A stretch of 64,000 nucleotides of DNA, from NCBI RefSeq assembly GCF_054482525.1, contig NZ_CM137006.1; one strand, 5' to 3'. Below are positions 6,191 through 61,261 of this stretch, piece after piece (position 1 is the stretch's first letter; each line of letters begins with the position of its first letter). The notes under the pieces were generated by a model. That model saw only the letters and a list, made by a program, of their open reading frames with translations, was not told where the DNA came from and did not search any database. Position numbers and translations under genes: made by a program.

Positions 6191-8326
6191 TTGCTTAATC
6201 CGATCGTTCGTAAATTCCAGTACGGCCAACACACCGTGACTCTGGAAACCGGCATGATGGCTCGTCAGGCTACTGCCGCTGTTATGGTTAGCATGGATGA
6301 CACCGCGGTATTCGTTACCGTTGTTGGCCAGAAAAAAGCCAAACCAGGTCAGGACTTCTTCCCACTGACCGTTAACTATCAGGAGCGTACCTACGCTGCT
6401 GGTCGTATCCCGGGTAGCTTCTTCCGTCGTGAAGGCCGCCCAAGCGAAGGCGAAACCCTGATCGCGCGTCTGATTGACCGCCCAATTCGCCCGCTGTTCC
6501 CGGAAGGCTTCGTCAACGAAGTTCAGGTTATCGCCACCGTGGTTTCTGTTAACCCGCAAGTTAACCCGGATATCGTCGCGATGATTGGTGCTTCCGCAGC
6601 ACTGTCTCTGTCTGGTATTCCGTTCAATGGTCCGATTGGTGCTGCCCGCGTAGGTTACATCAATGACCAGTACGTACTGAACCCGACTCAGGACGAGCTG
6701 AAAGAGAGCAAACTGGATCTGGTTGTTGCCGGTACTGAAGCCGCTGTACTGATGGTTGAATCTGAAGCTGAACTGCTGAGCGAAGACCAGATGTTGGGCG
6801 CAGTAGTGTTCGGTCATGAACAACAGCAGGTTGTCATTCAGAACATCAATGAACTGGTGAAAGAAGCCGGTAAACCGCGTTGGGACTGGCAGCCGGAGCC
6901 GGTAAACGAAGCGCTGAACGCGCGCGTTGCTGCACTGGCTGAAGCTCGTCTGAGCGATGCTTACCGCATCACCGACAAACAAGAGCGTTATGCGCAGGTT
7001 GATGTCATCAAATCTGAAACCATCGCGACGCTGCTTGCTGAAGATGAAACCCTGGACGAAAACGAACTGGGTGAAATTCTGCACGCTATCGAGAAAAACG
7101 TTGTTCGTAGCCGCGTACTGGCAGGCGAACCGCGTATCGACGGTCGTGAAAAAGATATGATTCGTGGTCTGGATGTGCGTACTGGCGTGCTGCCGCGTAC
7201 TCACGGTTCTGCGCTGTTCACCCGTGGTGAAACTCAGGCGCTGGTTACCGCAACGCTGGGTACTGCACGTGACGCGCAAGTTCTTGATGAACTAATGGGC
7301 GAACGTACTGACACCTTCCTGTTCCACTACAACTTCCCTCCGTACTCAGTAGGCGAAACCGGCATGGTCGGTTCTCCGAAGCGTCGTGAAATTGGTCACG
7401 GTCGTCTGGCGAAGCGCGGTGTGCTGGCAGTCATGCCGGATATGGACAAATTCCCGTACACCGTACGTGTTGTGTCTGAAATCACTGAATCCAACGGTTC
7501 CTCTTCTATGGCTTCCGTGTGCGGCGCGTCTCTGGCGCTGATGGACGCAGGTGTGCCAATCAAAGCTGCTGTTGCGGGTATCGCAATGGGTCTGGTGAAA
7601 GAAGGCGACAACTACGTTGTACTGTCTGACATTTTGGGCGACGAAGATCACCTGGGCGATATGGACTTCAAAGTTGCGGGTTCCCGCGACGGTATCTCTG
7701 CATTGCAGATGGATATCAAAATTGAAGGTATCACCAAAGAGATCATGCAGGTTGCGCTGAACCAGGCTAAAGGTGCGCGTCTGCATATCCTGGGCGTAAT
7801 GGAACAGGCGATCAACGCGCCGCGCGGCGATATCTCTGAGTTCGCTCCGCGTATCCATACCATCAAGATCAACCCGGACAAGATCAAAGACGTTATCGGT
7901 AAAGGCGGTTCTGTTATCCGTGCTCTGACCGAAGAAACTGGCACCACCATCGAAATCGAAGATGACGGTACTGTGAAGATCGCAGCGACCGACGGCGAGA
8001 AAGCGAAACATGCTATTCGTCGTATCGAAGAGATCACTGCAGAAATCGAAGTGGGCCGCGTCTACAATGGTAAAGTGACCCGTATCGTTGACTTTGGCGC
8101 ATTTGTTGCCATCGGCGGCGGTAAAGAAGGTCTGGTACACATCTCTCAGATCGCTGACAAACGCGTAGAGAAAGTGACCGATTACCTGCAGATGGGTCAG
8201 GAAGTACCGGTGAAAGTTCTGGAAGTTGATCGCCAGGGCCGTATCCGTCTGAGCATTAAAGAAGCGACTGAGCAGTCTCAACCTGCTGCAGCACCGGAAG
8301 CTCCGGCTGCTGAACAGGGCGAGTAA
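6191..8326 (+). CDS. pnp: Polynucleotide phosphorylase (PNPase), UUG start
   Basis: 711 aa from TTG at 6191 ([15 protein letters not shown]...); RNase PH, KH and S1 domains; track ORF from 6104 is an upstream in-frame extension. Confidence 0.95.
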
Positions 8327-8335
8327 GGTTGCCAT

Positions 8336-8365
8336 TTGCCCTCCGCTGCGGCGGGGGGCTTTTAA
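8336..8365 (+). terminator. Rho-independent terminator after pnp
   Basis: gccctccgctgcggcggggggc hairpin followed by tttt. Confidence 0.7.
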
Positions 8366-8434
8366 CCGGGCAGGACGCCTTGTTAGCAACCGGGAACAGG
8401 ACGTTCATTCAACCGTGGTCTTCGGGAGTGGGAA

Positions 8435-9319
8435 ATGAAGCCTTTTTTGCGCTGGTGTTTCGTTGCGACAGCACTTACGCTTGCAGGATGCAGTAATACT
8501 TCCTGGCGTAAAAGTGAAGTCCTCGCGGTACCATTGCAACCGACTTTACAGCAGGAAGTGATTCTGGCACGTATGGAACAAATCCTTGCCAGTCGGGCTT
8601 TAACCGATGACGAACGCGCACAGCTTTTATATGAGCGCGGAGTGTTGTATGATAGTCTCGGTCTGAGGGCATTAGCGCGTAACGATTTTTCGCAAGCGCT
8701 GGCAATCCGACCGGATATGCCTGAAGTATTCAATTACTTAGGCATATATTTAACGCAGGCAGGCAATTTTGATGCTGCCTATGAAGCGTTTGATTCTGTA
8801 CTTGAGCTTGATCCAACTTACAACTACGCGCACTTGAATCGCGGGATCGCATTATATTACGGCGGTCGTGATAAGTTAGCGCAAGATGATCTGCTGGCGT
8901 TTTATCAAGACGATCCCAATGATCCTTTCCGTAGTCTGTGGCTTTATCTCGCCGAGCAGAAGCTCGATGAGAAGCAGGCTAAAGAAGTGTTGAAACAGCA
9001 CTTCGAAAAATCGGATAAGGAACAGTGGGGATGGAACATTGTCGAGTTCTACCTGGGCAACATTAGCGAACAAACGTTAATGGAAAGGCTCAAGGCGGAC
9101 GCAACGGATAACACCTCGCTCGCTGAGCATCTCAGTGAAACCAACTTCTATTTAGGTAAGTACTACCTAAGTCTGGGGGATTTGGACAGCGCCACGGCAC
9201 TGTTCAAACTGGCGGTTGCCAACAACGTTCATAACTTTGTTGAGCACCGATACGCATTGTTGGAATTATCGCTCCTGGGCCAGGACCAAGATGACCTGGC
9301 AGAATCGGACCAGCAATAG
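8435..9319 (+). CDS. nlpI: Lipoprotein NlpI (TPR repeats)
   Basis: 294 aa; lipobox LTLAGC in signal peptide; TPR-like repeats. Confidence 0.95.
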
Positions 9320-9425
9320 CTGACGTACACATCAGCCCGTAATCTTTTTTGATTGCCATCACCTTAACGGGTGAGGGCGTTGTTGTTCGTTAATACACCT
9401 ACTTTGAGCCGGTTCACACTTTTCA

Positions 9426-9506
9426 ATGAAAATTGCTGATCAATTTCATGATGAGTTATGTAGACTGGCCGCCATTAATTTTGAGGCACACGTACTACAT
9501 GGCTGA
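9426..9506 (+). CDS. yrbN: Small protein YrbN (26 aa)
   Basis: atg aaa att gct gat caa ttt... translates [26 protein letters not shown]; stop overlaps deaD start. Confidence 0.5.
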
Positions 9507-11400
9507 ATTCGAAACCACTTTTGCAGATCTGGGCCTGAAGGCTCCTATCCTTGAAGCCCTTAACGATCTGGGTTACGAAAAACCATCTCCAATTCAGGCA
9601 GAGTGTATTCCACATCTGCTGAATGGCCGCGACGTTCTGGGTATGGCCCAGACGGGGAGCGGAAAAACTGCAGCATTCTCTTTACCTCTGCTGCAGAATC
9701 TTGATCCTGAGCTGAAAGCACCACAGATTCTGGTGTTGGCACCGACCCGCGAACTGGCGGTACAGGTTGCTGAGGCAATGACGGATTTCTCTAAACACAT
9801 GCGCGGCGTAAACGTGGTTGCCCTGTACGGCGGCCAGCGTTATGACGTGCAATTACGCGCCCTGCGTCAGGGGCCGCAGATCGTTGTCGGTACTCCGGGC
9901 CGTCTGCTGGATCACCTGAAACGTGGCACTCTGGACCTTTCTAAACTGAGCGGTCTGGTTCTGGATGAAGCTGACGAAATGCTGCGCATGGGCTTCATCG
10001 AAGACGTTGAAACCATTATGGCGCAGATCCCGGAAGGTCATCAGACCGCTCTGTTCTCTGCAACCATGCCGGAAGCGATTCGTCGCATTACCCGCCGCTT
10101 TATGAAAGAGCCGCAGGAAGTGCGCATTCAGTCCAGCGTGACTACCCGTCCTGACATCAGCCAGAGCTACTGGACCGTCTGGGGTATGCGTAAAAACGAA
10201 GCACTGGTACGTTTCCTGGAAGCGGAAGATTTTGATGCGGCGATTATCTTCGTTCGTACCAAAAACGCGACTCTGGAAGTGGCAGAAGCTCTTGAGCGTA
10301 ACGGCTACAATAGCGCCGCGCTGAACGGTGACATGAACCAGGCGCTGCGTGAGCAGACACTGGAACGACTGAAAGATGGTCGTCTGGACATCCTGATTGC
10401 GACCGACGTTGCGGCCCGTGGCCTGGACGTTGAGCGTATCAGCCTGGTAGTTAACTACGATATCCCGATGGATTCTGAGTCTTACGTTCACCGTATCGGT
10501 CGTACCGGTCGTGCGGGCCGTGCTGGCCGTGCGCTGCTGTTCGTTGAGAACCGTGAGCGTCGTCTGCTGCGTAACATTGAACGCACCATGAAGCTGACCA
10601 TTCCGGAAGTTGAACTGCCGAACGCAGAACTGCTGGGCAAACGTCGTCTGGAAAAATTCGCCGCTAAAGTACAGCAGCAGCTGGAAAGCAGCGATCTGGA
10701 TCAATACCGTGCACTGCTGAGCAAAATTCAGCCGACTGCCGAAGGCGAAGAGCTGGATCTCGAAACTCTGGCCGCCGCACTGCTGAAAATGGCACAGGGT
10801 GAACGTACTCTGATTGTTCCGCCAGATGCGCCGATGCGTCCGAAACGTGAATTCCGTGACCGTGATGACCGTGGTCCGCGCGATCGTAACGACCGTGGCC
10901 CGCGTGGTGACCGTGAAGATCGTCCGCGTCGTGAACGTCGTGATGTTGGCGATATGCAGCTGTACCGCATTGAAGTGGGCCGCGATGATGGTGTTGAAGT
11001 TCGTCATATCGTTGGCGCGATTGCTAACGAAGGCGACATCAGCAGCCGTTACATCGGTAACATCAAGCTGTTTGCTTCTCACTCCACCATCGAACTGCCG
11101 AAAGGTATGCCGGGTGAAGTGCTGCAACACTTTACGCGTACTCGCATTCTCAACAAGCCGATGAACATGCAGTTACTGGGCGATGCACAGCCGCATACTG
11201 GCGGTGAGCGTCGTGGCGGTGGTCGTGGTTTCGGTGGCGAACGTCGTGAAGGTGGTCGTGAAGGCGGTCGTAACTTCAGCGGTGAACGCCGTGAAGGTGG
11301 TCGTGGTGATGGTCGTCGTTTTAGCGGCGAACGTCGTGAAGGCCGCGCTCCGCGTCGTGATGACTCTACCGGTCGTCGTCGTTTCGGTGGTGATGCGTAA
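9499..11400 (+). CDS. deaD: ATP-dependent DEAD-box RNA helicase DeaD/CsdA
   Basis: [13 protein letters not shown]...; motifs [25 protein letters not shown]; Arg/Gly-rich repetitive C-terminus; start at ATG 9499. Confidence 0.95.
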
Positions 11401-11425
11401 TCATCGCTGAACAGCGAACACAATC

Positions 11426-11502
11426 TGTAAAATAATATATACAGCCCCGATTTGTACCATCGGGGCTTTTTTTCTGTCTTTTGTACTCGTGTACTGGTAC
11501 AG
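11426..11502 (+). promoter_or_regulatory. mtr promoter region with TyrR-box-like and TrpR-operator-like palindromes
   Basis: tgtaaaataatatataca (TGTAAA-N6-TATACA) and tgtactcgtgtactggtacag upstream of mtr. Confidence 0.55.
11444..11473 (+). terminator. Rho-independent terminator after deaD
   Basis: gccccgatttgtaccatcggggc followed by tttttttc. Confidence 0.75.
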
Positions 11503-11553
11503 TGCAATGCATAACAACGCAGTCGCACTATTTTTCACTGGAGAGAAGCCCTC

Positions 11554-12798
11554 ATGGCAACACTAACCACCACCCAAACGTCACCGTCGCTGCTTGGCGG
11601 CGTGGTGATTATCGGCGGCACCATTATTGGCGCAGGGATGTTTTCTCTGCCTGTGGTCATGTCCGGGGCGTGGTTCTTCTGGTCAATGGCGGCGCTGATC
11701 TTTACCTGGTTCTGTATGCTGCATTCCGGCTTGATGATTCTGGAAGCTAACCTGAATTATCGAATCGGTTCTAGTTTTGACACCATCACCAAAGATTTGC
11801 TGGGCAAAGGCTGGAATGTAGTCAACGGCATTTCCATTGCCTTTGTGCTCTATATCCTGACTTACGCCTATATTTCTGCCAGCGGTTCGATTCTGCATCA
11901 CACCTTCGCGGAGATGTCGCTAAACGTCCCTGCACGGGCAGCTGGATTTGGTTTTGCACTGCTGGTAGCGTTCGTGGTGTGGTTGAGTACGAAAGCTGTC
12001 AGCCGGATGACAGCAATTGTGCTGGGGGCGAAAGTCATTACTTTCTTCCTCACCTTCGGCAGCCTGCTGGGGCATGTACAGCCTGCGACATTGTTCAACG
12101 TCGCCGAAAGCAATGCGTCTTATGCGCCGTATCTGCTGATGACACTGCCATTCTGTCTGGCATCGTTTGGTTATCACGGTAACGTGCCGAGCCTGATGAA
12201 GTATTACGGCAAAGATCCGAAAACCATCGTGAAATGCCTGGTGTACGGTACGCTGATGGCGCTGGCGCTGTATACCATCTGGTTGCTGGCGACGATGGGC
12301 AACATCCCTCGTCCGGAGTTTATCGGCATCGCCGAGAAGGGCGGTAACATTGATGTGCTGGTACAGGCATTAAGCGGCGTGCTGAACAGCCGTAGCCTGG
12401 ATCTGCTGCTGGTCGTGTTCTCAAACTTTGCGGTAGCAAGTTCGTTCCTTGGCGTAACGCTGGGTTTGTTTGACTATCTGGCAGATCTGTTTGGTTTCGA
12501 TGACTCGGCTATGGGCCGCTTGAAAACAGCATTGTTGACCTTTGCACCGCCTGTTGTGGGTGGTCTGCTGTTCCCGAATGGATTCCTGTACGCCATTGGC
12601 TATGCTGGCTTAGCAGCTACCATCTGGGCGGCAATTGTACCGGCGCTGTTGGCCCGCGCATCGCGTAAACGCTTTGGCAGCCCGAAATTCCGCGTCTGGG
12701 GCGGTAAGCCGATGATTGCGCTGATTCTGGTGTTTGGCGTCGGCAACGCACTGGTGCATATTTTATCGAGCTTTAATTTGCTGCCGGTGTATCAGTAA
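11554..12798 (+). CDS. mtr: Tryptophan-specific permease Mtr
   Basis: 414-aa polytopic membrane protein, aromatic amino acid permease family. Confidence 0.95.
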
Positions 12799-13547: not shown

Positions 13548-14267
13548 ATGGGGCGTAAAGGACTACTTGCTATTGTATTGTTGAGCCTGTTTATCGCCAT
13601 GATTTTTCAATTTTTCTGGCCTGCCCCACACGATGAGCACGTTTTCCTGCTGGTTGAAAAACCTGTCGTACCGTCTTTAAAAATCATTCACGCCGGCGAC
13701 CAGTTATTTATCCGCATTCTGAAAGCGGAAGATAAGCTGGAACTGTGGGCAAGCACCAACAACAAGCCTTACGAACTCTATAAAACCTGGACTATATGCG
13801 CGTGGTCTGGTGGCTTAGGGCCAAAGCACAAACAGGGGGATGGTAAAAGCCCGGAAGGTTTTTATGCCACCAACAAAGGGTTACTTAACCCAAACAGTCG
13901 CTATCATCTGGCATTTAATATTGGTTACCCGAATGCTTACGATCGGGCAAACGGCTACACCGGTGATTTCATTATGGTTCACGGAAACTGCCTTTCGGCG
14001 GGCTGCTATGCCATGACCGATGCTGGTATTGAAGAGATTTATCAACTGGTGGCGCAGGCGCTGAATAGCGGGCAGAAGAGCGTGCCGGTGCATATCTTCC
14101 CGTTTGCGATGAACGAAGAAAATATGCGCCAGGCGCAGGTATGGCCGGAATATAATTTCTGGCGTATGTTGAAGCCCGGCTATGATTACTTTGAAAAAAA
14201 TCGCCGATTGCCAACCATCACCATTGAAAACCGGCGTTATAAAATCAGCCCAACAACTCATCCTTAG
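13548..14267 (+). CDS. YafK/DpaA-like L,D-transpeptidase-fold protein (YkuD domain) with N-terminal signal/anchor
   Basis: 239 aa; hydrophobic N-terminus; YkuD catalytic motif HGNCLSAGC; long-range similarity to E. coli YafK (…SGGLGPK…[10 protein letters not shown]…[11 protein letters not shown]…GCYAM…PGYDYFE…). Confidence 0.75.
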
Positions 14268-22909: not shown

Positions 22910-23305
22910 TTATGAGTGGTCATTAAAGGCATCCTTAATCCACTCAACCTCATTCCCGGTGAAGGCTACCACATCGAACCGGCAATCCACAGTATCAAAA
23001 CTCCCATTATGACGCGCGAGCCACAAGCGGGCAGTCTGTAATAATTTGTGTTGTTTGCTGCGGGTCACACTGGCTGCCGCGCCGCCATAAAGCGCAGAGC
23101 GGCGGTAACGCACCTCAACAAAAACGGTGGTCCGGCCTTCACGCATTATCAGATCGATCTCGCCGCCACGCTCGTTCACGTTAGCGGCGATAAACCGCAG
23201 TCCTTTGCCTTCCAGCCAGCGACGCGCTTGTGCTTCCCACGCATCGCCGGTCTGTTTGGTGGTTAACTGGCGGGGACTACCTGACCTTGTTGGTACTGTA
23301 GCCAT
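22910..23305 (-). CDS. yraN: UPF0102 protein YraN
   Basis: 131-aa ORF; conserved position between diaA and lpoA. Confidence 0.88.
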
Positions 23306-25299
23306 GATAACTTCCTGTTAATCACGCAATCCGGGTTAGCCGTCAGACTTCCGGTATTACCGTTGATTTCAAAACCCTGAACCTGGCGCATTTGTGAGAA
23401 ATGATTTGTCAACGACCAGGCATCGACGCCCATCGCATACATGCGAGCCAGCGAATAATCGTTGTTCACCGCGCTGAGCGCCTGCTGCATTAACGGCAGA
23501 TTACCGCCTGCCAGCATCGGGATTTCGCTGTACTGCAAGCCTTCCATCTCCAGACGGAAATCCGGGCCTGCGGTGCCTTGTGCGCTGCGGGAACTGGCGT
23601 ACAGCGTTGCACCGCTCTGGCTACCGTTACGCATGGCGATCATCGGTTTGATAAAAGCGATTTCACCCGGCGTTGCCACAATGTAGACCGCATCGACACG
23701 ACCGCCATTATTGGTGAACTGGTCATCGGTTGGCGTGGTTTGCAGCGTTGGATTGTTGGTCGTCATGCCGGAGTCGGTTGTCGCTCTGGGAGTAATCGGG
23801 CTACCCGTTAAAGCAATACCAGAACCGCCGTTAACACCCGCGCGTAATTCGCTGGTGGAACCAAATTTTTGTTGCAGAACGGTGCCGCCACCCAGTTTCT
23901 GCCACTCTTGCGCAAACGCATTGGCTACGCGATCGCCCAATGAACTACGTGGGATCAGCACCAGCGGCGCTTGTTTACCCTGGTCACGAATATGACGCGC
24001 AGCATCGCGCGCTTCGTCTTCTGGTGAAAGCGCGAAGTAACAAATATTGACGCGGTTTTCGATATTCTCCGGCTGGTTCAGTGCCAGCACGTTCAGCGGG
24101 GTGTTGCTCTTCAGCAACTCTTCAACGTTATTTTTCAGCAACGGGCCGACCACAATACTCGCGCCATCCTGTTGAACCTGGTTGAGGATCTGGCTAAGTG
24201 GTTGTGATGATGTATCGTAGATTTTCAGCTCTGCGGATGGATTCGCAGGTGCGCTTACCGCTGCGGTGGTTGCCGCCGGGGCGTTTACAGGCACCGGCTG
24301 GGCCGCAGGTTGTTCACCGGTCAGATCGCTAACCGAGGCTTGTGCCGGGCTGGCAACGCCATCCACGGTTTGCGGCTGAGGTTGTTCTGCTACGTCTGCG
24401 GCAGGTGCGGCAGCTACCTGAGTCGCCACTGGCTGAGTGCCGATATTTTTCGCCGCTTCAAAGCCTTGCTGAATAGTGCGACCAAATACCGCTGCCTGGC
24501 CATTCAGTGGCAAAAGCAGGGCGATTTTGTTGGTCGATGCGGGTTTAAACGCTTTTACGTTAACCAACTGCGTTGGCAGCATTTTCGCGCCCGGGTTGTT
24601 CGGATAACGTTTCTGCCAGTCGGCGATCCCGGCTTTCATCATGTCGGGATCGTTACGGTTATCAAACCAGATGCGCTGCAGATCCAGCCAGCCTTGCAGA
24701 ATATTTTCGTCGGCATTGATCACCAGCGTATTCGCCTGTTCCTGAGTCATGGAGGAGAGCGCCTGCCAGGTTGCGTCAATATTCTGCTGCTTTTCTTTCG
24801 CGCCGAGCAGCGGTTCCTGAGCAATTAACGCGCGCAGTAAATCAATGGAAGGACGCCCCTGGCTGGCATCGATTTTTACCTGCCAGTAACGCGCTTGCTG
24901 GTTTTGTTCTAAATCTGCAGGTGTGATTTTCGCCAGCAAGTTTTGCGCGCCAGCAAAATCTTTCTGCGCCAGTTTAATCTCTGCCGCCAGCAGTGTTTTC
25001 TCGCGACGCTGAGAATCGTTCAGTTCTTGCGGTAGTTGGTTAAACAACTCCACCGCCTGTCCGGTTTTACCTTCTTTCACCAGTGCACGAATGGCGAGTA
25101 ATTGCCAGTTGATCCTGGTATCATCAGAGCTTTGCTGCATCTGTTGCAGGTAAAAGGCAGAATCAGCCTGCGCCGTGCCCTGCATATAAGCAGTGGACTG
25201 ATCGGGAGTATGGGTGCCACAACCGGCGAAAATCAGGGCTGCCAGAACAACAGGCAGACAACGCGCGGCTTTCAAACGAGAAAATGTTGAGGGTACCAT
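23263..25299 (-). CDS. lpoA: Penicillin-binding protein activator LpoA (lipoprotein)
   Basis: [28 protein letters not shown]…; 678 aa from internal ATG; lipobox. Confidence 0.92.
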
Positions 25300-25363
25300 A
25301 ATGTATCCAGTGATATTTTTTTTACGCAATGCTCAATATTAAATCGGCAAAACGGACGACACA

Positions 25364-26227
25364 ATGAAACAACACCAATCGGCGGATAATTCTCAGGGCC
25401 AGCTTTACATTGTACCGACGCCAATCGGCAATCTGGCGGATATCACCCAGCGTGCGTTGGAGGTATTACAGGCCGTTGATCTGATTGCCGCCGAGGATAC
25501 GCGTCACACCGGTTTATTGCTGCAACATTTTGGGATTAATGCTCGGTTGTTTGCGCTGCACGACCATAACGAACAACAAAAAGCCGAAACGCTGCTGGCG
25601 AAGCTGCAAGAGGGGCAAAACATTGCGCTGGTTTCCGATGCCGGAACGCCGCTAATTAACGATCCTGGCTACCATCTGGTGCGTACCTGCCGTGAAGCGG
25701 GGATTCGCGTGGTGCCGCTACCCGGGCCGTGTGCTGCTATCACTGCGTTAAGCGCCGCGGGTTTACCATCCGATCGTTTTTGTTATGAAGGCTTTTTACC
25801 TGCCAAATCAAAAGGCCGCCGTGATGCGCTAAAAGCCATTGAAGCGGAGCCGCGCACGCTGATTTTTTATGAATCTACCCACCGTCTGTTAGATAGCCTG
25901 GAAGATATCGTTGCGGTATTAGGCGAATCCCGCTACGTCGTTCTGGCGCGTGAGCTGACCAAAACCTGGGAAACCATTCACGGCGCGCCCGTTGGCGAGC
26001 TGCTGGCGTGGGTCAAAGAAGATGAAAACCGTCGCAAAGGCGAAATGGTACTGATTGTCGAAGGCCATAAAGCACAGGAAGAAGACTTACCCGCCGATGC
26101 CCTGCGCACGCTGGCGCTGCTACAGGCAGAACTGCCACTGAAAAAAGCGGCGGCGCTGGCAGCAGAAATTCACGGCGTGAAGAAAAATGCGCTGTATAAG
26201 TATGCACTGGAGCAGCAGGGAGAGTGA
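25364..26227 (+). CDS. rsmI: 16S rRNA (cytidine1402-2'-O)-methyltransferase RsmI
   Basis: 287-aa ORF, tetrapyrrole-methylase fold motifs ([15 protein letters not shown]). Confidence 0.93.
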
Positions 26228-26276
26228 TTACAGGCGTCGCAGCAGGAATAGCGTTGCAACGCCTGTAGCAGGCGAG

Positions 26277-27044
26277 TTAACGACGACACATCTCATCAAT
26301 CATGCATGTGAAATAGTTATGCAGCCATAAAAATGAAGCCGGGATAGCGGTAGAGACTTTAGCCGTGAGAAAACGTTCTGTCGCATCCTGCTTTCCTTCG
26401 CCAGTCACCAGTAACAAAACTTCGTGGGCATTGAGAATATCCTTCAGGCCTAAGGTGATCCCACGAGTCACGGGACGGCCCGCGGTTTTTAACATCTCAT
26501 GTTGCTGTGTTCTGGCATCAAGTTGACTGATATGGCAGGCCGGTTGCAGGCTTTCTCCCGGTTCGTTCAGCCCAAGATGACCGTTTTTCCCCAACCCGAG
26601 AACGCATAAATCCAGACCGCCTTTGCGCGCAATCAGGTGCGTTACCCGTTCGCACTCTGTCTCATTTATCTCTTCGGAGCGAAAGCTGATGAGCTGGTCT
26701 TCACGCAGCCCCAGCGGCTGCACGATATGCTGTTGCAGGAAAGTTTCGCAGGTACCAGGCATAGTTAATGGCAGATCCACCCATTCGTCGAGCTTCACGA
26801 AGGTGAGCTGGCTGACATCAACCTGCTGCTGGTGGATTTTTTCTACCAGATAATGATACGTCAGTAATGGCGTGGCTCCGGTCGCCAGGCAAATCACTGC
26901 ATCCGGTTTGCTACGGATCACTGCCAATAAATATTCGCTGGCACGTTCACTTAACGCCATATAGTTTTCAACTTGCTGAAGGGTTTGCACAGGATGAAAT
27001 TCCTTAAGTAAAGAGGCACCACCAGACGCAGTGCCTCGTTCCAT
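26277..27044 (-). CDS. agaI: Putative galactosamine-6-phosphate deaminase/isomerase AgaI
   Basis: 255-aa ORF, NagB/GlcN6P-deaminase-like; last gene of aga cluster. Confidence 0.88.
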   Translation of the reverse strand: MERGTASGGASLLKEFHPVQTLQQVENYMALSERASEYLLAVIRSKPDAVICLATGATPLLTYHYLVEKIHQQQVDVSQLTFVKLDEWVDLPLTMPGTCETFLQQHIVQPLGLREDQLISFRSEEINETECERVTHLIARKGGLDLCVLGLGKNGHLGLNEPGESLQPACHISQLDARTQQHEMLKTAGRPVTRGITLGLKDILNAHEVLLLVTGEGKQDATERFLTAKVSTAIPASFLWLHNYFTCMIDEMCRR

Positions 27045-27836
27045 TTACAAAATGCCGAATGCGGAACAAACAATAGAGAGCACAAAAGTCACGCCGATTA
27101 ACAGCACCGGATGCGCTTTTTTCACCCGCAGGAAGTAATACATCAGCAGGGTGTAGGCCATCGGTAAAATATTCGGGAAGACTTTATCGAAGAAATCCTG
27201 CTGCAGCGCGACGCTGTGGGTACTGTCGATGGCAAACGATGTCACCACGTTAATATGCACATACGAAGCGATCAGCCCGCCGATTACTGTGATCCCGAGG
27301 ATGGTTGCCGAACGGGCAATCATCTGCGAGTTCTCTCGCACTTTATCGATCGCCTTCACGCCGACTGAATAACCGACGTGGGTCCAGCCGACGCGCAGGA
27401 AAAAGATAAGCAGGTAAACGGCGAAAAATAGAATCGGCCCCAGCAGGTTTCCCTGGCTGGCAAATGATGAGCAAATCCCCGCCATAATCGGCAACAAAGT
27501 GAACCAGAAAATCGCATCGCCAATCCCGGCGATTGGGCCAAACAGTGCCACTTTGAGGCCTTTAATGGTGTCGCGGTTTTCTCCTTTTTCTTCCATCGAA
27601 ATTAATAACCCCATCAGGAATCCGACCAGATTCGGGTGGGTATTAATAAATTCGAGGTTATCTTTCATCGCCGCGCTTAGGCCCGGTTTGTCGTCCTTAT
27701 AAATCTTTTTCAGGATCGGCAACATCGCCCAGGTAAAACCGCCCGCCTGCATCCTTTCGTAGTTAAAGCTTGCTTGTAGCAGTGACGAACGAAAGCCCAG
27801 ACGGGTGATATCTTTTTTACTGATTTCAGATCCCAT
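27045..27836 (-). CDS. agaD: PTS galactosamine-specific EIID
   Basis: MGSEISKKDITRLGFRSSLLQASFNYERMQ… 263 aa from internal ATG; mannose-family IID. Confidence 0.9.
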   Translation of the reverse strand: MGSEISKKDITRLGFRSSLLQASFNYERMQAGGFTWAMLPILKKIYKDDKPGLSAAMKDNLEFINTHPNLVGFLMGLLISMEEKGENRDTIKGLKVALFGPIAGIGDAIFWFTLLPIMAGICSSFASQGNLLGPILFFAVYLLIFFLRVGWTHVGYSVGVKAIDKVRENSQMIARSATILGITVIGGLIASYVHINVVTSFAIDSTHSVALQQDFFDKVFPNILPMAYTLLMYYFLRVKKAHPVLLIGVTFVLSIVCSAFGIL

Positions 27837-31688: not shown

Positions 31689-32822
31689 TCAAAACGAAGC
31701 TAATTGACCCTGAATCCAGATTTGTTGCACATGCAGCCCGCTATCCAGCGCAACGACGCTGGCGCGTTTGCCCGGTTTAAGCGATCCCAGAACACCATCA
31801 ACACCCAGCATTCGCGCCGGATGCAGCGACGCCATATGGATGGCTTCCGCAGGCGTTACGCCCGTTAACTCGACCATGTTGCGCACTGCTGCATCGACAG
31901 ATAGCGTACTGCCCGCCAGCCCACCGGACGCGGTACGGACAACGCCACCGTGCATCTGCACTTCTTCGCCACATAACGTATAGCGACCATCCGGCATCCC
32001 AGCTGCCTGCATCGCGTCGGTGATCAGTACGATTCTCTCTTTCGCACAGCAACAACACAGCGACATCGCCGCCGGATGCACATGATGACCATCGGCTATC
32101 AGTTCCAGCCAGGCGCGCTTGTCCGTTAATCCCGCGCCAACCATTCCCGGTTCGCGGTGATGTAAACCTGTCATCCCGTTATAGCAATGCACCAGGCCGT
32201 CGGCACCAGCATCAAATGCGGCGCGGGTTTGTTGCCAGGTCGCCGCGCTATGCCCCAGCATCACCCTTACGTTTTGCTGTTTAAGATGGCGGATGGCCTG
32301 CAATGCCCCTTCTTTTTCCGGTGCCAGCGCTACCACGCGCAAGGTGTGCTGAGAAACGGCAATCAATTGATCCAGCTCGGCAATTTCAAGCTCGCGAAAC
32401 AACTCCGGCGGATGCGCGCCTTTATTCTGCGGCGTGAAGTACGGTCCTTCGAGATAACTCCCCAGCACTTGCGCACCAGGTCCGCCGCGTTGGCAACGTT
32501 GAGCAATACGTTTCAGCGCCGCATGAATGGTATTAAGCGGCGCGGTTACGGTGGTCGGTAACCAACTGCCGACACCTTCGCGTGCCTTGTGCATTGCCAG
32601 CTTGTCGAGTACATCCGGCGCGTCATCCATTACATCAACGCCCGCACCACCATGTACATGGGTGTCGATGTAAGCGGGGCAGAGCAGTTCCGCATCGCGT
32701 TCAGTCACGCCCACTGGAATCGGTTCGATTGCTGCGATTACACCGTCAGCAATACGCAACTGATGGTCATCGAGCCATCCCTCTTCAGTCAGCAGCCTTC
32801 TGGCGCGCAGAACGTGTGTCAT
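31689..32822 (-). CDS. agaA: N-acetylgalactosamine-6-phosphate deacetylase AgaA (full length)
   Basis: MTHVLRARRLLTEEGWL…; about 377 aa; NagA-like metal-binding motifs; intact here. Confidence 0.9.
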   Translation of the reverse strand: MTHVLRARRLLTEEGWLDDHQLRIADGVIAAIEPIPVGVTERDAELLCPAYIDTHVHGGAGVDVMDDAPDVLDKLAMHKAREGVGSWLPTTVTAPLNTIHAALKRIAQRCQRGGPGAQVLGSYLEGPYFTPQNKGAHPPELFRELEIAELDQLIAVSQHTLRVVALAPEKEGALQAIRHLKQQNVRVMLGHSAATWQQTRAAFDAGADGLVHCYNGMTGLHHREPGMVGAGLTDKRAWLELIADGHHVHPAAMSLCCCCAKERIVLITDAMQAAGMPDGRYTLCGEEVQMHGGVVRTASGGLAGSTLSVDAAVRNMVELTGVTPAEAIHMASLHPARMLGVDGVLGSLKPGKRASVVALDSGLHVQQIWIQGQLASF

Positions 32823-33253
32823 ATTCCTTCCTCGACCGGACATTCTTCATGGCAGCGGCCTAACTCGTCTACCAGACTGGTCAGCCCACGGTGTCCACAC
32901 TCCAGCGCCTGCACACGGAACTCTTCACCGCTTAACCCTTCGCGCTCCAGCACCATCTCCAGTAGCAGTTGCAAATTGGTGCCGGTGATCACTTCACAGC
33001 CCGGTTTTTGCATCGCCAGCGTTGAAGCTACGCGAAACGGCGTGCCGCCCAGCAAATCTGTCAGAAAAACAATGCCGTCTTCACAATCCAGTTGGGCGAT
33101 GGCCTCTTCAAGCTGCGATGTAAGCAGCGCGGTGCTTGAGGTTTCGGGAAAATCGATGGCAATAAACTGCGATTGATCGCCGAGGATTTGCTTCATTGCT
33201 TTTTCCATGCCACTGGCAAACCCGCCATGCCCTGTCAAAATAATACTTAACAT
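32819..33253 (-). CDS. agaF: PTS N-acetylgalactosamine-specific EIIA
   Basis: 144 aa, mannose-family IIA (MLSIILTGHGGFASG). Confidence 0.88.
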   Translation of the reverse strand: MLSIILTGHGGFASGMEKAMKQILGDQSQFIAIDFPETSSTALLTSQLEEAIAQLDCEDGIVFLTDLLGGTPFRVASTLAMQKPGCEVITGTNLQLLLEMVLEREGLSGEEFRVQALECGHRGLTSLVDELGRCHEECPVEEGI

Positions 33254-33270
33254 CTAATACCTCATTGTAT

Positions 33271-34155
33271 TTAAAGGAAATGGCAGAATTTACCGACGAT
33301 ACCGAGAACCACGGTAACTGCAATCAGGCGCAGCGGACTCCAGCCGCGGCGTACCAGCCAGAACATGGTCAGGGTGTAGACCAGCGGTAAGAAGGCAGGC
33401 ATCAGTTTGTCGATAACATCAGCCTGTAACTTAACCACTGCGTCGCCCGCTGTGATTTCCAGCGTGGTGCTTAAACGAACATAGGTTGCCACCAGCGCGC
33501 CGATTACCGTCATCCCAACGATAGACGCAGCATGGCCGACTTTTTTGGTATTCGCTTTAATGAGTGGAATCGCCGCCACGCCCATGCGGTAAGCATAATG
33601 CGCCAGACCAAAACGCAGCCCCAGGTGTACCACGTTGAACAGCACAATAAAGACGACTGCGCCAAGAATAGAGCCTTGTAGCGCGAGGCTTGCGCCTATC
33701 CCGCCACAAATCGGCAGTAGCGTCAGCCAGAACATCGCATCGCCAATCCCGCCAAGTGGCGCACCGACGGCAATTTTGGTGCTCTGAATACTGTTAACGT
33801 CCTGCTTAGAACGCTCCATAGCAAGGATAATGCCGATAACAAACGTCACCAGAAACGGATGGGTATTGAAGAAACCCATATGCCCCTTCATGGCGCGCGC
33901 CAGGTCGCGTTTATTAGTGTGGATCTTTTTCAGAGCAGGCAGCAGACCGTACAACCAGCCGGAAGCCTGCATACGTTCGTAGTTAAAAGACGCTTGTAAC
34001 AGCATGGAACGCCAGGCGACGCGGTTGATATCTTTTTTCGTCAGCTCCGCGCCAATGCTCTGATCTTCATACACGTTTTCATTGACGCCAGTCAGCAATG
34101 TTTCTTCGTTTTCACTGACGTTCGGCAGGGTGGTTTGATTAGATGCCATCTTCAA
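33271..34155 (-). CDS. agaE: PTS N-acetylgalactosamine-specific EIID
   Basis: 294-aa membrane ORF paralogous to agaD. Confidence 0.88.
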   Translation of the reverse strand: MKMASNQTTLPNVSENEETLLTGVNENVYEDQSIGAELTKKDINRVAWRSMLLQASFNYERMQASGWLYGLLPALKKIHTNKRDLARAMKGHMGFFNTHPFLVTFVIGIILAMERSKQDVNSIQSTKIAVGAPLGGIGDAMFWLTLLPICGGIGASLALQGSILGAVVFIVLFNVVHLGLRFGLAHYAYRMGVAAIPLIKANTKKVGHAASIVGMTVIGALVATYVRLSTTLEITAGDAVVKLQADVIDKLMPAFLPLVYTLTMFWLVRRGWSPLRLIAVTVVLGIVGKFCHFL

Positions 34156-34918
34156 ATTCCTCTTTCTGTGCCGCAGGTTGAGTCGGTTCAGGAGATTTAC
34201 GCAGCAGGTCGATCAGCGCCATCGCCAGCGCGGCGGCAGCAATAGCCAGCACCGGTAACTTGAGCCAGGCTGCGGCAACAAAGCCCAGGATGAAGTAGGG
34301 GATGTAGACGTTTTTCATCATGATTTTCAGCAGTACGGCAAAACCGATCGCTGGCATGATGCCGCCCGCGACGCCGAGGCCGTCGATTAATCGTTGCGGC
34401 AGGACATCAATGATGGTTTTGGCATGTTCTGCGCCGAAGTAGATAGGCAGGAAAGCGCAGAGAAAATAGAAAGTGCCGAGTGCCAGCAGTGCCAGATAGT
34501 TCACGCGTTCAATGCCGCGAGTATCGGCGTTCTCTGCCATCCGGTCACAGCGGGACATTACGCCAGACATCACCGAGAACAGGAAGGTAATCCCCATCTG
34601 TACTGCGACAGCGAAAGGTACGGCGACACCGACTGCGACATCGGGTTTCACGCCAGTAGTAATGGCAAACGCCGTGCCGACGATAGTACCGATAATCACG
34701 TTAGGCGGCTGTGCGCCCGCCAGCGGGGCCAGCCCCATCCACACCAGTTCCAGCGTACCGCCGGTTAAAATACCGGTATGCAGATCGCCAAGTACCAGCC
34801 CGACTAACGGGCCGAGGACCACCGGGCGGTGCATATGGGTTAGGCCGTTAAACATATCCAGGCCAGCGATAAAGGCGATAATGCCCAACGCGAATGCCTG
34901 CAACAGACTGATTTCCAT
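34139..34918 (-). CDS. agaW: PTS N-acetylgalactosamine-specific EIIC (full length)
   Basis: 259-aa membrane ORF paralogous to agaC. Confidence 0.88.
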   Translation of the reverse strand: MEISLLQAFALGIIAFIAGLDMFNGLTHMHRPVVLGPLVGLVLGDLHTGILTGGTLELVWMGLAPLAGAQPPNVIIGTIVGTAFAITTGVKPDVAVGVAVPFAVAVQMGITFLFSVMSGVMSRCDRMAENADTRGIERVNYLALLALGTFYFLCAFLPIYFGAEHAKTIIDVLPQRLIDGLGVAGGIMPAIGFAVLLKIMMKNVYIPYFILGFVAAAWLKLPVLAIAAAALAMALIDLLRKSPEPTQPAAQKEEFEDGI

Positions 34919-59880: not shown

Positions 59881-60635
<755 letters not shown>

Positions 60636-60739
60636 ATCAGCATACTTGTCCTTAGCCTTCTGCAGTGACAGCTGGTAGTACAGCGTGCTTCTGGCCAGCC
60701 CTGCAGCCTTTAACAGGTCAGACTGGCAGTGTCCGCACC

Positions 60740-61261
60740 TCAGGCTCCGGATGACTTTCGTTTTTTCTCCAGCTCCTGGCGCTTTTTTTCCAGGAGATGC
60801 TCCTGCATGGCTTTCAGATATGCATTTTCTGCGCGAAGATAACGCAGCTCATTCTTCATCTCTTCCGGCGTCATGTTTGCCTCGTTTTCATGGGTATCAT
60901 CAGAACGGGTCATGCTTTTCTCCTTCCTGCGCCTGATAAAGGCCTCATTACCAGATTTGCGGTAGCCTTTTATCCAGTTTTTAACCGTGTTGTGGCTGGG
61001 AATGTTAAACCGGGCAGCTACCCGGGGTAGAGACTCAGAATGCCCGAGAGCATAAAGAACCACGCAAAGTTTATCTTCAGGAGAATAGCTACGCTTGTGT
61101 CTGCAATCCAGTGCCCGAGGACCGTGAAGAAGAAAAAGATTAATCCAGTGTGAGAGGCTGGTGTGAGAAAGTTGAAAGAGTTTTGCCGTAGAAATGATGC
61201 CTGCATGACCAGCCAGGTAGTGATTTACAGCGGCAAGTTTTACTTCAAATGAATGTTTCAT
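60740..61261 (-). CDS. insJ: IS3-family transposase OrfA (HTH), IS150 InsJ-like
   Basis: MKHSFEVKLAAVNHYLAGHAGIISTAKLFQLSHTSLSHWINLF… 173 aa. Confidence 0.88.
   Translation of the reverse strand: MKHSFEVKLAAVNHYLAGHAGIISTAKLFQLSHTSLSHWINLFLLHGPRALDCRHKRSYSPEDKLCVVLYALGHSESLPRVAARFNIPSHNTVKNWIKGYRKSGNEAFIRRRKEKSMTRSDDTHENEANMTPEEMKNELRYLRAENAYLKAMQEHLLEKKRQELEKKRKSSGA

Follow-up and report, generated by a model that had tools for sequence, protein, structure and literature searches.

The rsmI-agaI junction of a phylogroup D Escherichia coli: a probably inherited empty allele at a multi-allelic site

Introduction

In Escherichia coli K-12 MG1655, the annotated gene order agaI-yraH-yraI-yraJ-yraK-rsmI places a chaperone-usher fimbrial operon between agaI and rsmI, whose stop codons lie 5,449 bp apart. 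The DNA analysed here, a stretch of 64,000 nucleotides referred to as the window, has the same two genes side by side. A preliminary description of the window, made from the sequence alone, had given the K-12 order correctly, and agaI and rsmI are indeed not adjacent in K-12, where MG1655 carries yraHIJK between them. That description left two explanations standing, a clean deletion of the operon or an ancestral empty site, and the locus thus raises the question of which arrangement is the older and how the two came to differ.

Only 5 of the 64,000 positions of the window differ from the finished E. coli PCN033 chromosome. PCN033 is assigned to phylogroup D in its genome paper (PMC4578781), and Table 4 of the same paper scores Yra as '-' in PCN033 and as present in the phylogroup A strain PCN061. 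The operon yraHIJK has been tabulated as present in strains W, K-12, B and Crooks (PMC3032704), and yra genes have been detected as expressed in urinary isolates of phylogroups A and B1 (PMC4128348). The protein YraJ is described as patchy in its distribution across E. coli and as not co-occurring with the related usher UshC (PMC5717340), and a published phylogenomic reconstruction has yra gained by the E/B1/A lineage (bioRxiv 10.1101/486399). Yra is not named in the main text of Wurpel et al. 2013 (PMC3559732). As far as gene content goes, both the absence of yra from PCN033 and its gain in the E/B1/A lineage are therefore already known.

Results

Layout of the junction

The gene rsmI occupies positions 25364-26227 of the window on the + strand and encodes a 16S rRNA C1402 2'-O-methyltransferase of 287 aa, which is matched over its full length by the NCBIfam RsmI equivalog model NF011570 (E=8e-190). 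Converging on it from the - strand is agaI (26277-27044), which encodes a galactosamine-6-phosphate isomerase/deaminase of 255 aa and is matched by the AgaI equivalog model NF007291 (E=6e-141). The two stop codons are separated by a spacer of 49 bp (26228-26276), exactly the gap that had been reported in the preliminary description, and the palindrome noticed there was located inside the spacer at 26230-26266. The junction is flanked on one side by the conserved core gene lpoA (23263-25329, - strand), which is divergent from rsmI and is listed as an ORF of 688 aa but annotated in PCN033 as a 2037-nt CDS, and on the other side by agaD (27045-27836, - strand), the conserved neighbour upstream of agaI in the agaBCDI unit. 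The reported absence of the yra genes was borne out by a tblastn search with K-12 YraH, YraI, YraJ and YraK as queries, which returned no homologue at E<=1e-3 anywhere in the 64-kb window.

Several features lie elsewhere in the window. The genes agaW, agaE, agaF and agaA (the last annotated as nagA) are intact at 31689-34918 on the - strand; in K-12, agaW and agaA are pseudogenes left by a deletion that also took agaE and agaF. The window has an intact gene of the L,D-transpeptidase family (13548-14267, + strand) between yhbW and mtr, whereas the PCN033 RefSeq record contains an internal stop in this gene and annotates it as a pseudogene. Two of the five differences between the window and PCN033 (13983 G/T and 14020 A/T) fall inside this gene, and the window therefore derives either from a corrected assembly or from a very close relative. 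An IS3-family element, IS1397, is present at 59913-61261 between yhaL and cyuA, according to the annotation of the matching PCN033 record.

Breakpoints and gene tails relative to K-12

In an alignment of the window to K-12, homology ends at position 26220 on the rsmI side and resumes at position 26320 on the agaI side. The difference from K-12 is therefore not bounded by the stop codons but takes in the last codons of both genes. The allele-specific segment of 99 bp (26221-26319) spans 7 nt at the 3' end of rsmI, the 49-bp spacer and 43 nt at the 3' end of agaI, has no detectable DNA match in K-12 by blastn, and stands opposite 5,484 K-12-specific bp that carry yraHIJK (positions 6996-12479 of the K-12 locus, L001).

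The consequences are visible at the C-termini of both proteins. RsmI ends in ...EQQGE in empty-type alleles and in ...EQQG in K-12, and AgaI ends in ...NYFTCMIDEMCRR in empty-type alleles and in ...SNFICLINT in K-12, or, over a longer stretch, in ...LHNYFTCMIDEMCRR in the window and in ...LHSNFICLINT in K-12. The AgaI tails of the window and K-12 are still recognisably related (F-x-C-x-I), which suggests that divergence climbs steeply towards the cassette and has no sharp edge. Across the alleles described below, AgaI tails of the types ...DEMCRR, ...LINT, ...DRNKA, ...ERSKA, ...DKLTLEKHNYIL and ...DEICRH were observed, alongside RsmI tails ending in ...QQGE, ...QQG and ...QQE.

A search for direct or inverted repeats at the boundaries of the K-12 insert found longest common words of 7-8 nt, which were matched by 18-58 of 100 shuffles. 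No significant word in common was found between the 99 bp and the K-12, Escherichia whittamii, Escherichia sp. MOD1-EC7003 or toxin-module inserts that might mark a remnant of the segment, and at the empty site itself no scar, yra remnant or surviving K-12 intergenic sequence was found. The 42-bp spacer between yraK and rsmI in K-12 was considered as a possible homologue of the 49-bp spacer and rejected, the common words being at most 10-11 nt and within chance expectation. Stems of the GCGTTGC/GCAACGC type occur in both spacers, and on sequence comparison their hairpins are treated as analogous, not homologous.

Distribution of the empty junction in E. coli

The distribution of the junction was surveyed in 5,426 complete E. 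coli genomes. A 1.1-kb probe spanning the junction was contiguous in 1,835 of them, and a 151-bp junction probe was covered over at least 80% of its length in 1,821, with identities from 100% down to 91%. The K-12 yra segment was covered to at least 80% in 3,270 of the 5,426 genomes. Carriers of the empty junction include E2348/69, 536, JJ2434 (ST131) and one ST38 strain, and the 1.1-kb probe was split in K-12, a BL21 derivative and O157:H7. Roughly one in three complete E. coli genomes thus carries the empty allele, among them strains of phylogroups D and B2.

These results closely follow the published presence/absence polymorphism of Yra, which concerns the same locus between the same flanks, agaI and rsmI (yraL), and, as here, has the operon absent from D and B2 strains and present in A, B1 and E strains, a phylogroup pattern that in the present survey is drawn from named reference strains and the literature. 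Nothing substantive differs between the two; what is added here are the base-level breakpoints, the gene tails, the spacer and the additional alleles. True secondary lesions of the yra operon were also seen in other strains, in the form of IS1 or IS1203 insertions and of partial deletions that keep yraJ/yraK (H96, H103, H105 and H106).

Alternative alleles at the site

The junction between rsmI and agaI holds at least six alleles, several of which are unrelated cassettes placed between the same conserved flanks. Besides the empty 49-bp spacer of the window and the yraHIJK operon of K-12, one allele consists of a RelE/ParE-family toxin gene and a gene for an HTH protein, found in E. coli 23CRST031 (L014, 3151-4001). 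This module has a length of 851 bp and a GC content of 41.5%, and it replaces exactly the 49-bp spacer; the gene tails of the empty type are kept, with an RsmI of 287 aa that ends in ...QQGE. The module is intact in 13 of the 5,426 genomes, and fragments of its ends are present in approximately 60 others.

A further allele, in E. coli LHM10-1, carries genes for an MBL-fold hydrolase and a divergent LysR regulator (L018, 4702-7122), and another, in O145 strain RM12522-C8, combines the MBL-hydrolase and LysR genes with malX/malY-like genes and a PTS IIB fragment (L017, 9001-14268). In O145 strains, the latter allele wholly replaces agaBCDI. By annotation, the RsmI protein accessions at both loci are the same as in empty-site strains. 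The two alleles have end fragments in common with the toxin-HTH allele, a sequence likeness that suggests nested replacement histories.

The sixth allele is a divergent yra-like chaperone-usher operon, present in two E. coli genomes and in MOD1-EC7003 (L019, 1400-7476, in E. coli 18KM2445; L007, 9778-15167, in MOD1-EC7003). Its proteins exhibit 51-65% amino acid identity with K-12 Yra, and the E. coli and MOD1-EC7003 operons share approximately 80% nucleotide identity. Despite this divergent fimbrial cassette, 18KM2445 is nearly identical to the window in lpoA (99.7%) and rsmI (99.4%), and homology between the two breaks at 26220 and 26320, the same positions as in the comparison with K-12. 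Window-like flanks around a foreign cassette, together with identical breakpoints, form the pattern expected if whole cassettes, along with the final codons of the two neighbouring genes, are swapped through homologous recombination in the flanking DNA. In 18KM2445, 1 kb of DNA with a GC content of 32.8% and no annotated gene separates agaI from the first fimbrial gene.

The site is therefore a multi-allelic replacement hotspot between core genes. No tRNA gene, integrase, target-site duplication or mobile-element machinery was seen in any allele whose annotation was inspected. Integrase-free hotspots of integration or replacement between E. coli core genes are reportedly an existing concept, and the junction resembles them in that unrelated cassettes occupy one core-gene position, boundaries are common to the alleles, and the inserts measured here are AT-richer than the flanks. 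It is unlike them in that the cassette boundaries fall within the 3' ends of agaI and rsmI themselves, such that the alleles supply their own last codons of AgaI and RsmI.

The junction in other species

A scan for AgaI in species-representative genomes yielded six loci. The two genes are separated by exactly 49 bp in E. albertii, Escherichia sp. E1V33 and E. coli E69, and all three share with the window the hairpin and the AgaI (...DEMCRR) and RsmI (...QQGE) tails. All nine empty-site sequences compared, that of E. albertii included, have a spacer of this same length. Outside the genus, agaI directly adjoins rsmI in Trabulsiella odontotermitis, with a spacer of 102 bp (L008, 9706-9807). The ancestral empty site proposed in the preliminary description is supported by these arrangements, namely the same 49-bp junction in E. 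albertii and E1V33 and the adjacency of the two genes in Trabulsiella. In place of the Escherichia hairpin, the Trabulsiella spacer holds an inverted pair of palindromes of the GCCGGATAAGGCG type, which, judged by eye, we take to be REP-like.

The window and E. albertii share 93.9% identity over the 99-bp junction, compared with 92.3% for rsmI and 90.6% for agaI. The junction has thus diverged about as much as its flanks, which points to vertical descent rather than introgression, and introgression from E. albertii was on this ground ruled out as the source of the shared empty allele.

Two other members of the genus have an occupied site. E. whittamii carries a K-12-like yraHIJK operon with 83-90% amino acid identity, and the yra-like operon of MOD1-EC7003 exhibits a protein identity of only 53-65%, so that occupancy, too, is of long standing, which complicates any reading of polarity at the root of the genus. 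The inserts have GC contents of 45.1% (K-12 yra), 47.3% (E. whittamii) and 42.7% (MOD1-EC7003), compared with 49-56% for the flanks and 51% for the whole window, and the AT-richness of the yra cassettes relative to their flanks is as expected of acquired DNA. The RsmI tail ...QQG is common to Trabulsiella and the occupied alleles, whereas the empty allele has ...QQGE, suggesting that the 49-bp allele is itself derived and is not literally the primordial sequence.

The spacer hairpin

The spacer palindrome forms a G+C-rich stem-loop directly past both stop codons and is predicted to fold equally well on either strand (-24.3 kcal/mol, z -2.5, on the + strand; -24.5 kcal/mol, z -3.6, on the - strand). 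In this strain, the hairpin has 14 stem positions, of which 12 are Watson-Crick pairs, one is a G-U pair and one is a C-A mismatch, and a loop of 9 nt. A single copy is present in the window when up to 3 mismatches are allowed, with 0 expected by chance, and in the genomes the palindrome was found at 1,870 places in 1,869 genomes, with a median of one place per genome.

The hairpin resembles REP/BIME elements in being an imperfect palindrome in a convergent intergenic region, and the REP-like pair of Trabulsiella lies at the same junction. REPs are, however, present in hundreds of copies per genome, unlike the palindrome of the window, and a REP or other repeated element was ruled out, the palindrome being single-copy both in the window and per genome. 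An intrinsic terminator shares with the hairpin a G+C-rich stem-loop after the stop codons, and rsmI of K-12 is followed at the equivalent place, in the yraK-rsmI spacer of the yra allele, by a canonical intrinsic terminator, which the terminator scan scores as one. The window hairpin differs in lacking a U/T-run on either strand and in being degraded in many B2 genomes; the terminator scan found 0 terminator-like sites on either strand in 25900-26600, and a canonical intrinsic terminator was likewise ruled out. The hairpin had no match in Rfam.

Among the nine empty-site sequences, one compensatory pair was found, a change from G-C to A-U in E. coli E69, alongside five pairs with disruptive changes only, and the covariation score was not significant, being reached by 59 of 500 shuffles on an alignment in which only 8 of the nine sequences are distinct. 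The E69 hairpin is a perfect stem (-29.5 kcal/mol, z -4.6). E2348/69 has lost the structure (-12.2 kcal/mol, z +1.0), its fold being no more stable than that of shuffled sequence. The B2-type empty alleles of E2348/69 and UPEC 26-1 (L010 and L011, 321-396, corresponding to window 26215-26290) carry 3-4 mismatches in the hairpin, and approximately 608 genomes fall into the 90-95% identity band of the 151-bp probe, the band of these B2 alleles. The hairpin is clearly dispensable. Where it is intact, the predicted fold tentatively suggests a stable 3'-end stem-loop shared by both convergent transcripts, though we hold this role to be somewhat less probable than its absence. Such a stem-loop would shield the rsmI and agaI transcripts from 3' exonucleases, aid termination, or both, and, given the lack of a U-tract, termination would presumably occur with Rho.

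Discussion

At this multi-allelic site, the window very probably has an empty allele of ancestral type that was inherited, and not a recent deletion of a K-12-like locus. Trabulsiella, E. albertii and E1V33 have no insert, the junction has diverged to a similar degree as its flanks, the inserts are AT-rich, and the published reconstruction has yra as a gain; from these points together we infer that the empty arrangement is the older and that yra was gained. A 5.5-kb, AT-richer yraHIJK cassette would have replaced the 99 bp in the ancestry of phylogroups E, B1 and A, and alleles at the junction would since have been exchanged by homologous recombination in the conserved flanks.

A recent clean deletion, the other option of the preliminary description, would require the K-12 arrangement in the immediate ancestors of the strain and a precise excision of the four yra genes. 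The bare absence of the operon is all that this account has in its favour at the site, although the secondary yra lesions of other strains do indicate that the operon can be damaged. Those lesions look different, however, bearing IS elements and retaining yraJ/yraK, whereas the empty site has neither repeats nor a scar, its 99 bp have no detectable counterpart in K-12 DNA, the last codons of both AgaI and RsmI differ, and the same architecture recurs in E. albertii and in some 1,835 genomes, among which its sequence varies by up to 9%; we regard a recent deletion as extremely improbable. That a collapsed or mis-joined contig dropped the operon during assembly has no point in its support and a probability close to nil, as 1,835 independent complete genomes have an unbroken junction, the window agrees with the finished PCN033 chromosome at all but the five positions, and Yra is independently reported as absent in the PCN033 genome paper (PMC4578781).

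More has to be weighed in the case of an ancient loss, in which a yra-type operon was present in the Escherichia ancestor and was lost or replaced once, before or around the split of E. coli and E. albertii, the 49-bp allele having since been inherited and now and then recombined. The occupied sites of E. whittamii and MOD1-EC7003 are consistent with such a history, the divergence of the latter (53-65% at the amino acid level) implying a long residence of the cassette, as is the RsmI tail ...QQG, which Trabulsiella has in common with the occupied alleles and not with the empty one. The AgaI tails point the other way, since those of the empty-type and MOD1-EC7003 alleles keep the 'TC..D' motif of Trabulsiella and the K-12-type 'FIC' looks derived. 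Trabulsiella, which is another genus, and also E. albertii and E1V33 are all without an insert, the yra cassettes are AT-richer than their flanks, and the published reconstruction places the gain in E/B1/A, so that an ancient loss appears improbable and an inherited empty allele with later gain of yra is preferred.

The distribution of alleles across species invites a broader reading. E. coli has the empty allele in common with E. albertii and the K-12-type yra operon in common with E. whittamii, and rare E. coli share the divergent yra operon with MOD1-EC7003, a pattern from which it could be argued that the junction is a long-lived trans-species polymorphism under balancing or niche-dependent selection. 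We consider this rather unlikely; if true, possession of Yra fimbriae would represent an ecological switch of ancient origin and not a lineage marker.

The significance of the locus beyond annotation is small, the difference being an ordinary strain-level polymorphism in gene content. To what was known at that level, the present analysis adds a base-level map, in which the final codons of agaI and rsmI belong to the variable cassette, and evidence that the empty allele predates the split of E. coli and E. albertii. It also lists no fewer than six alleles, a set that could be of use as a compact marker for typing or as an example of how cassettes are exchanged without an integrase. For the organism itself, the finding accounts for the lack of one cryptic K-12 fimbria in this phylogroup D ExPEC strain: the absence is very probably inherited and not a strain-specific loss.
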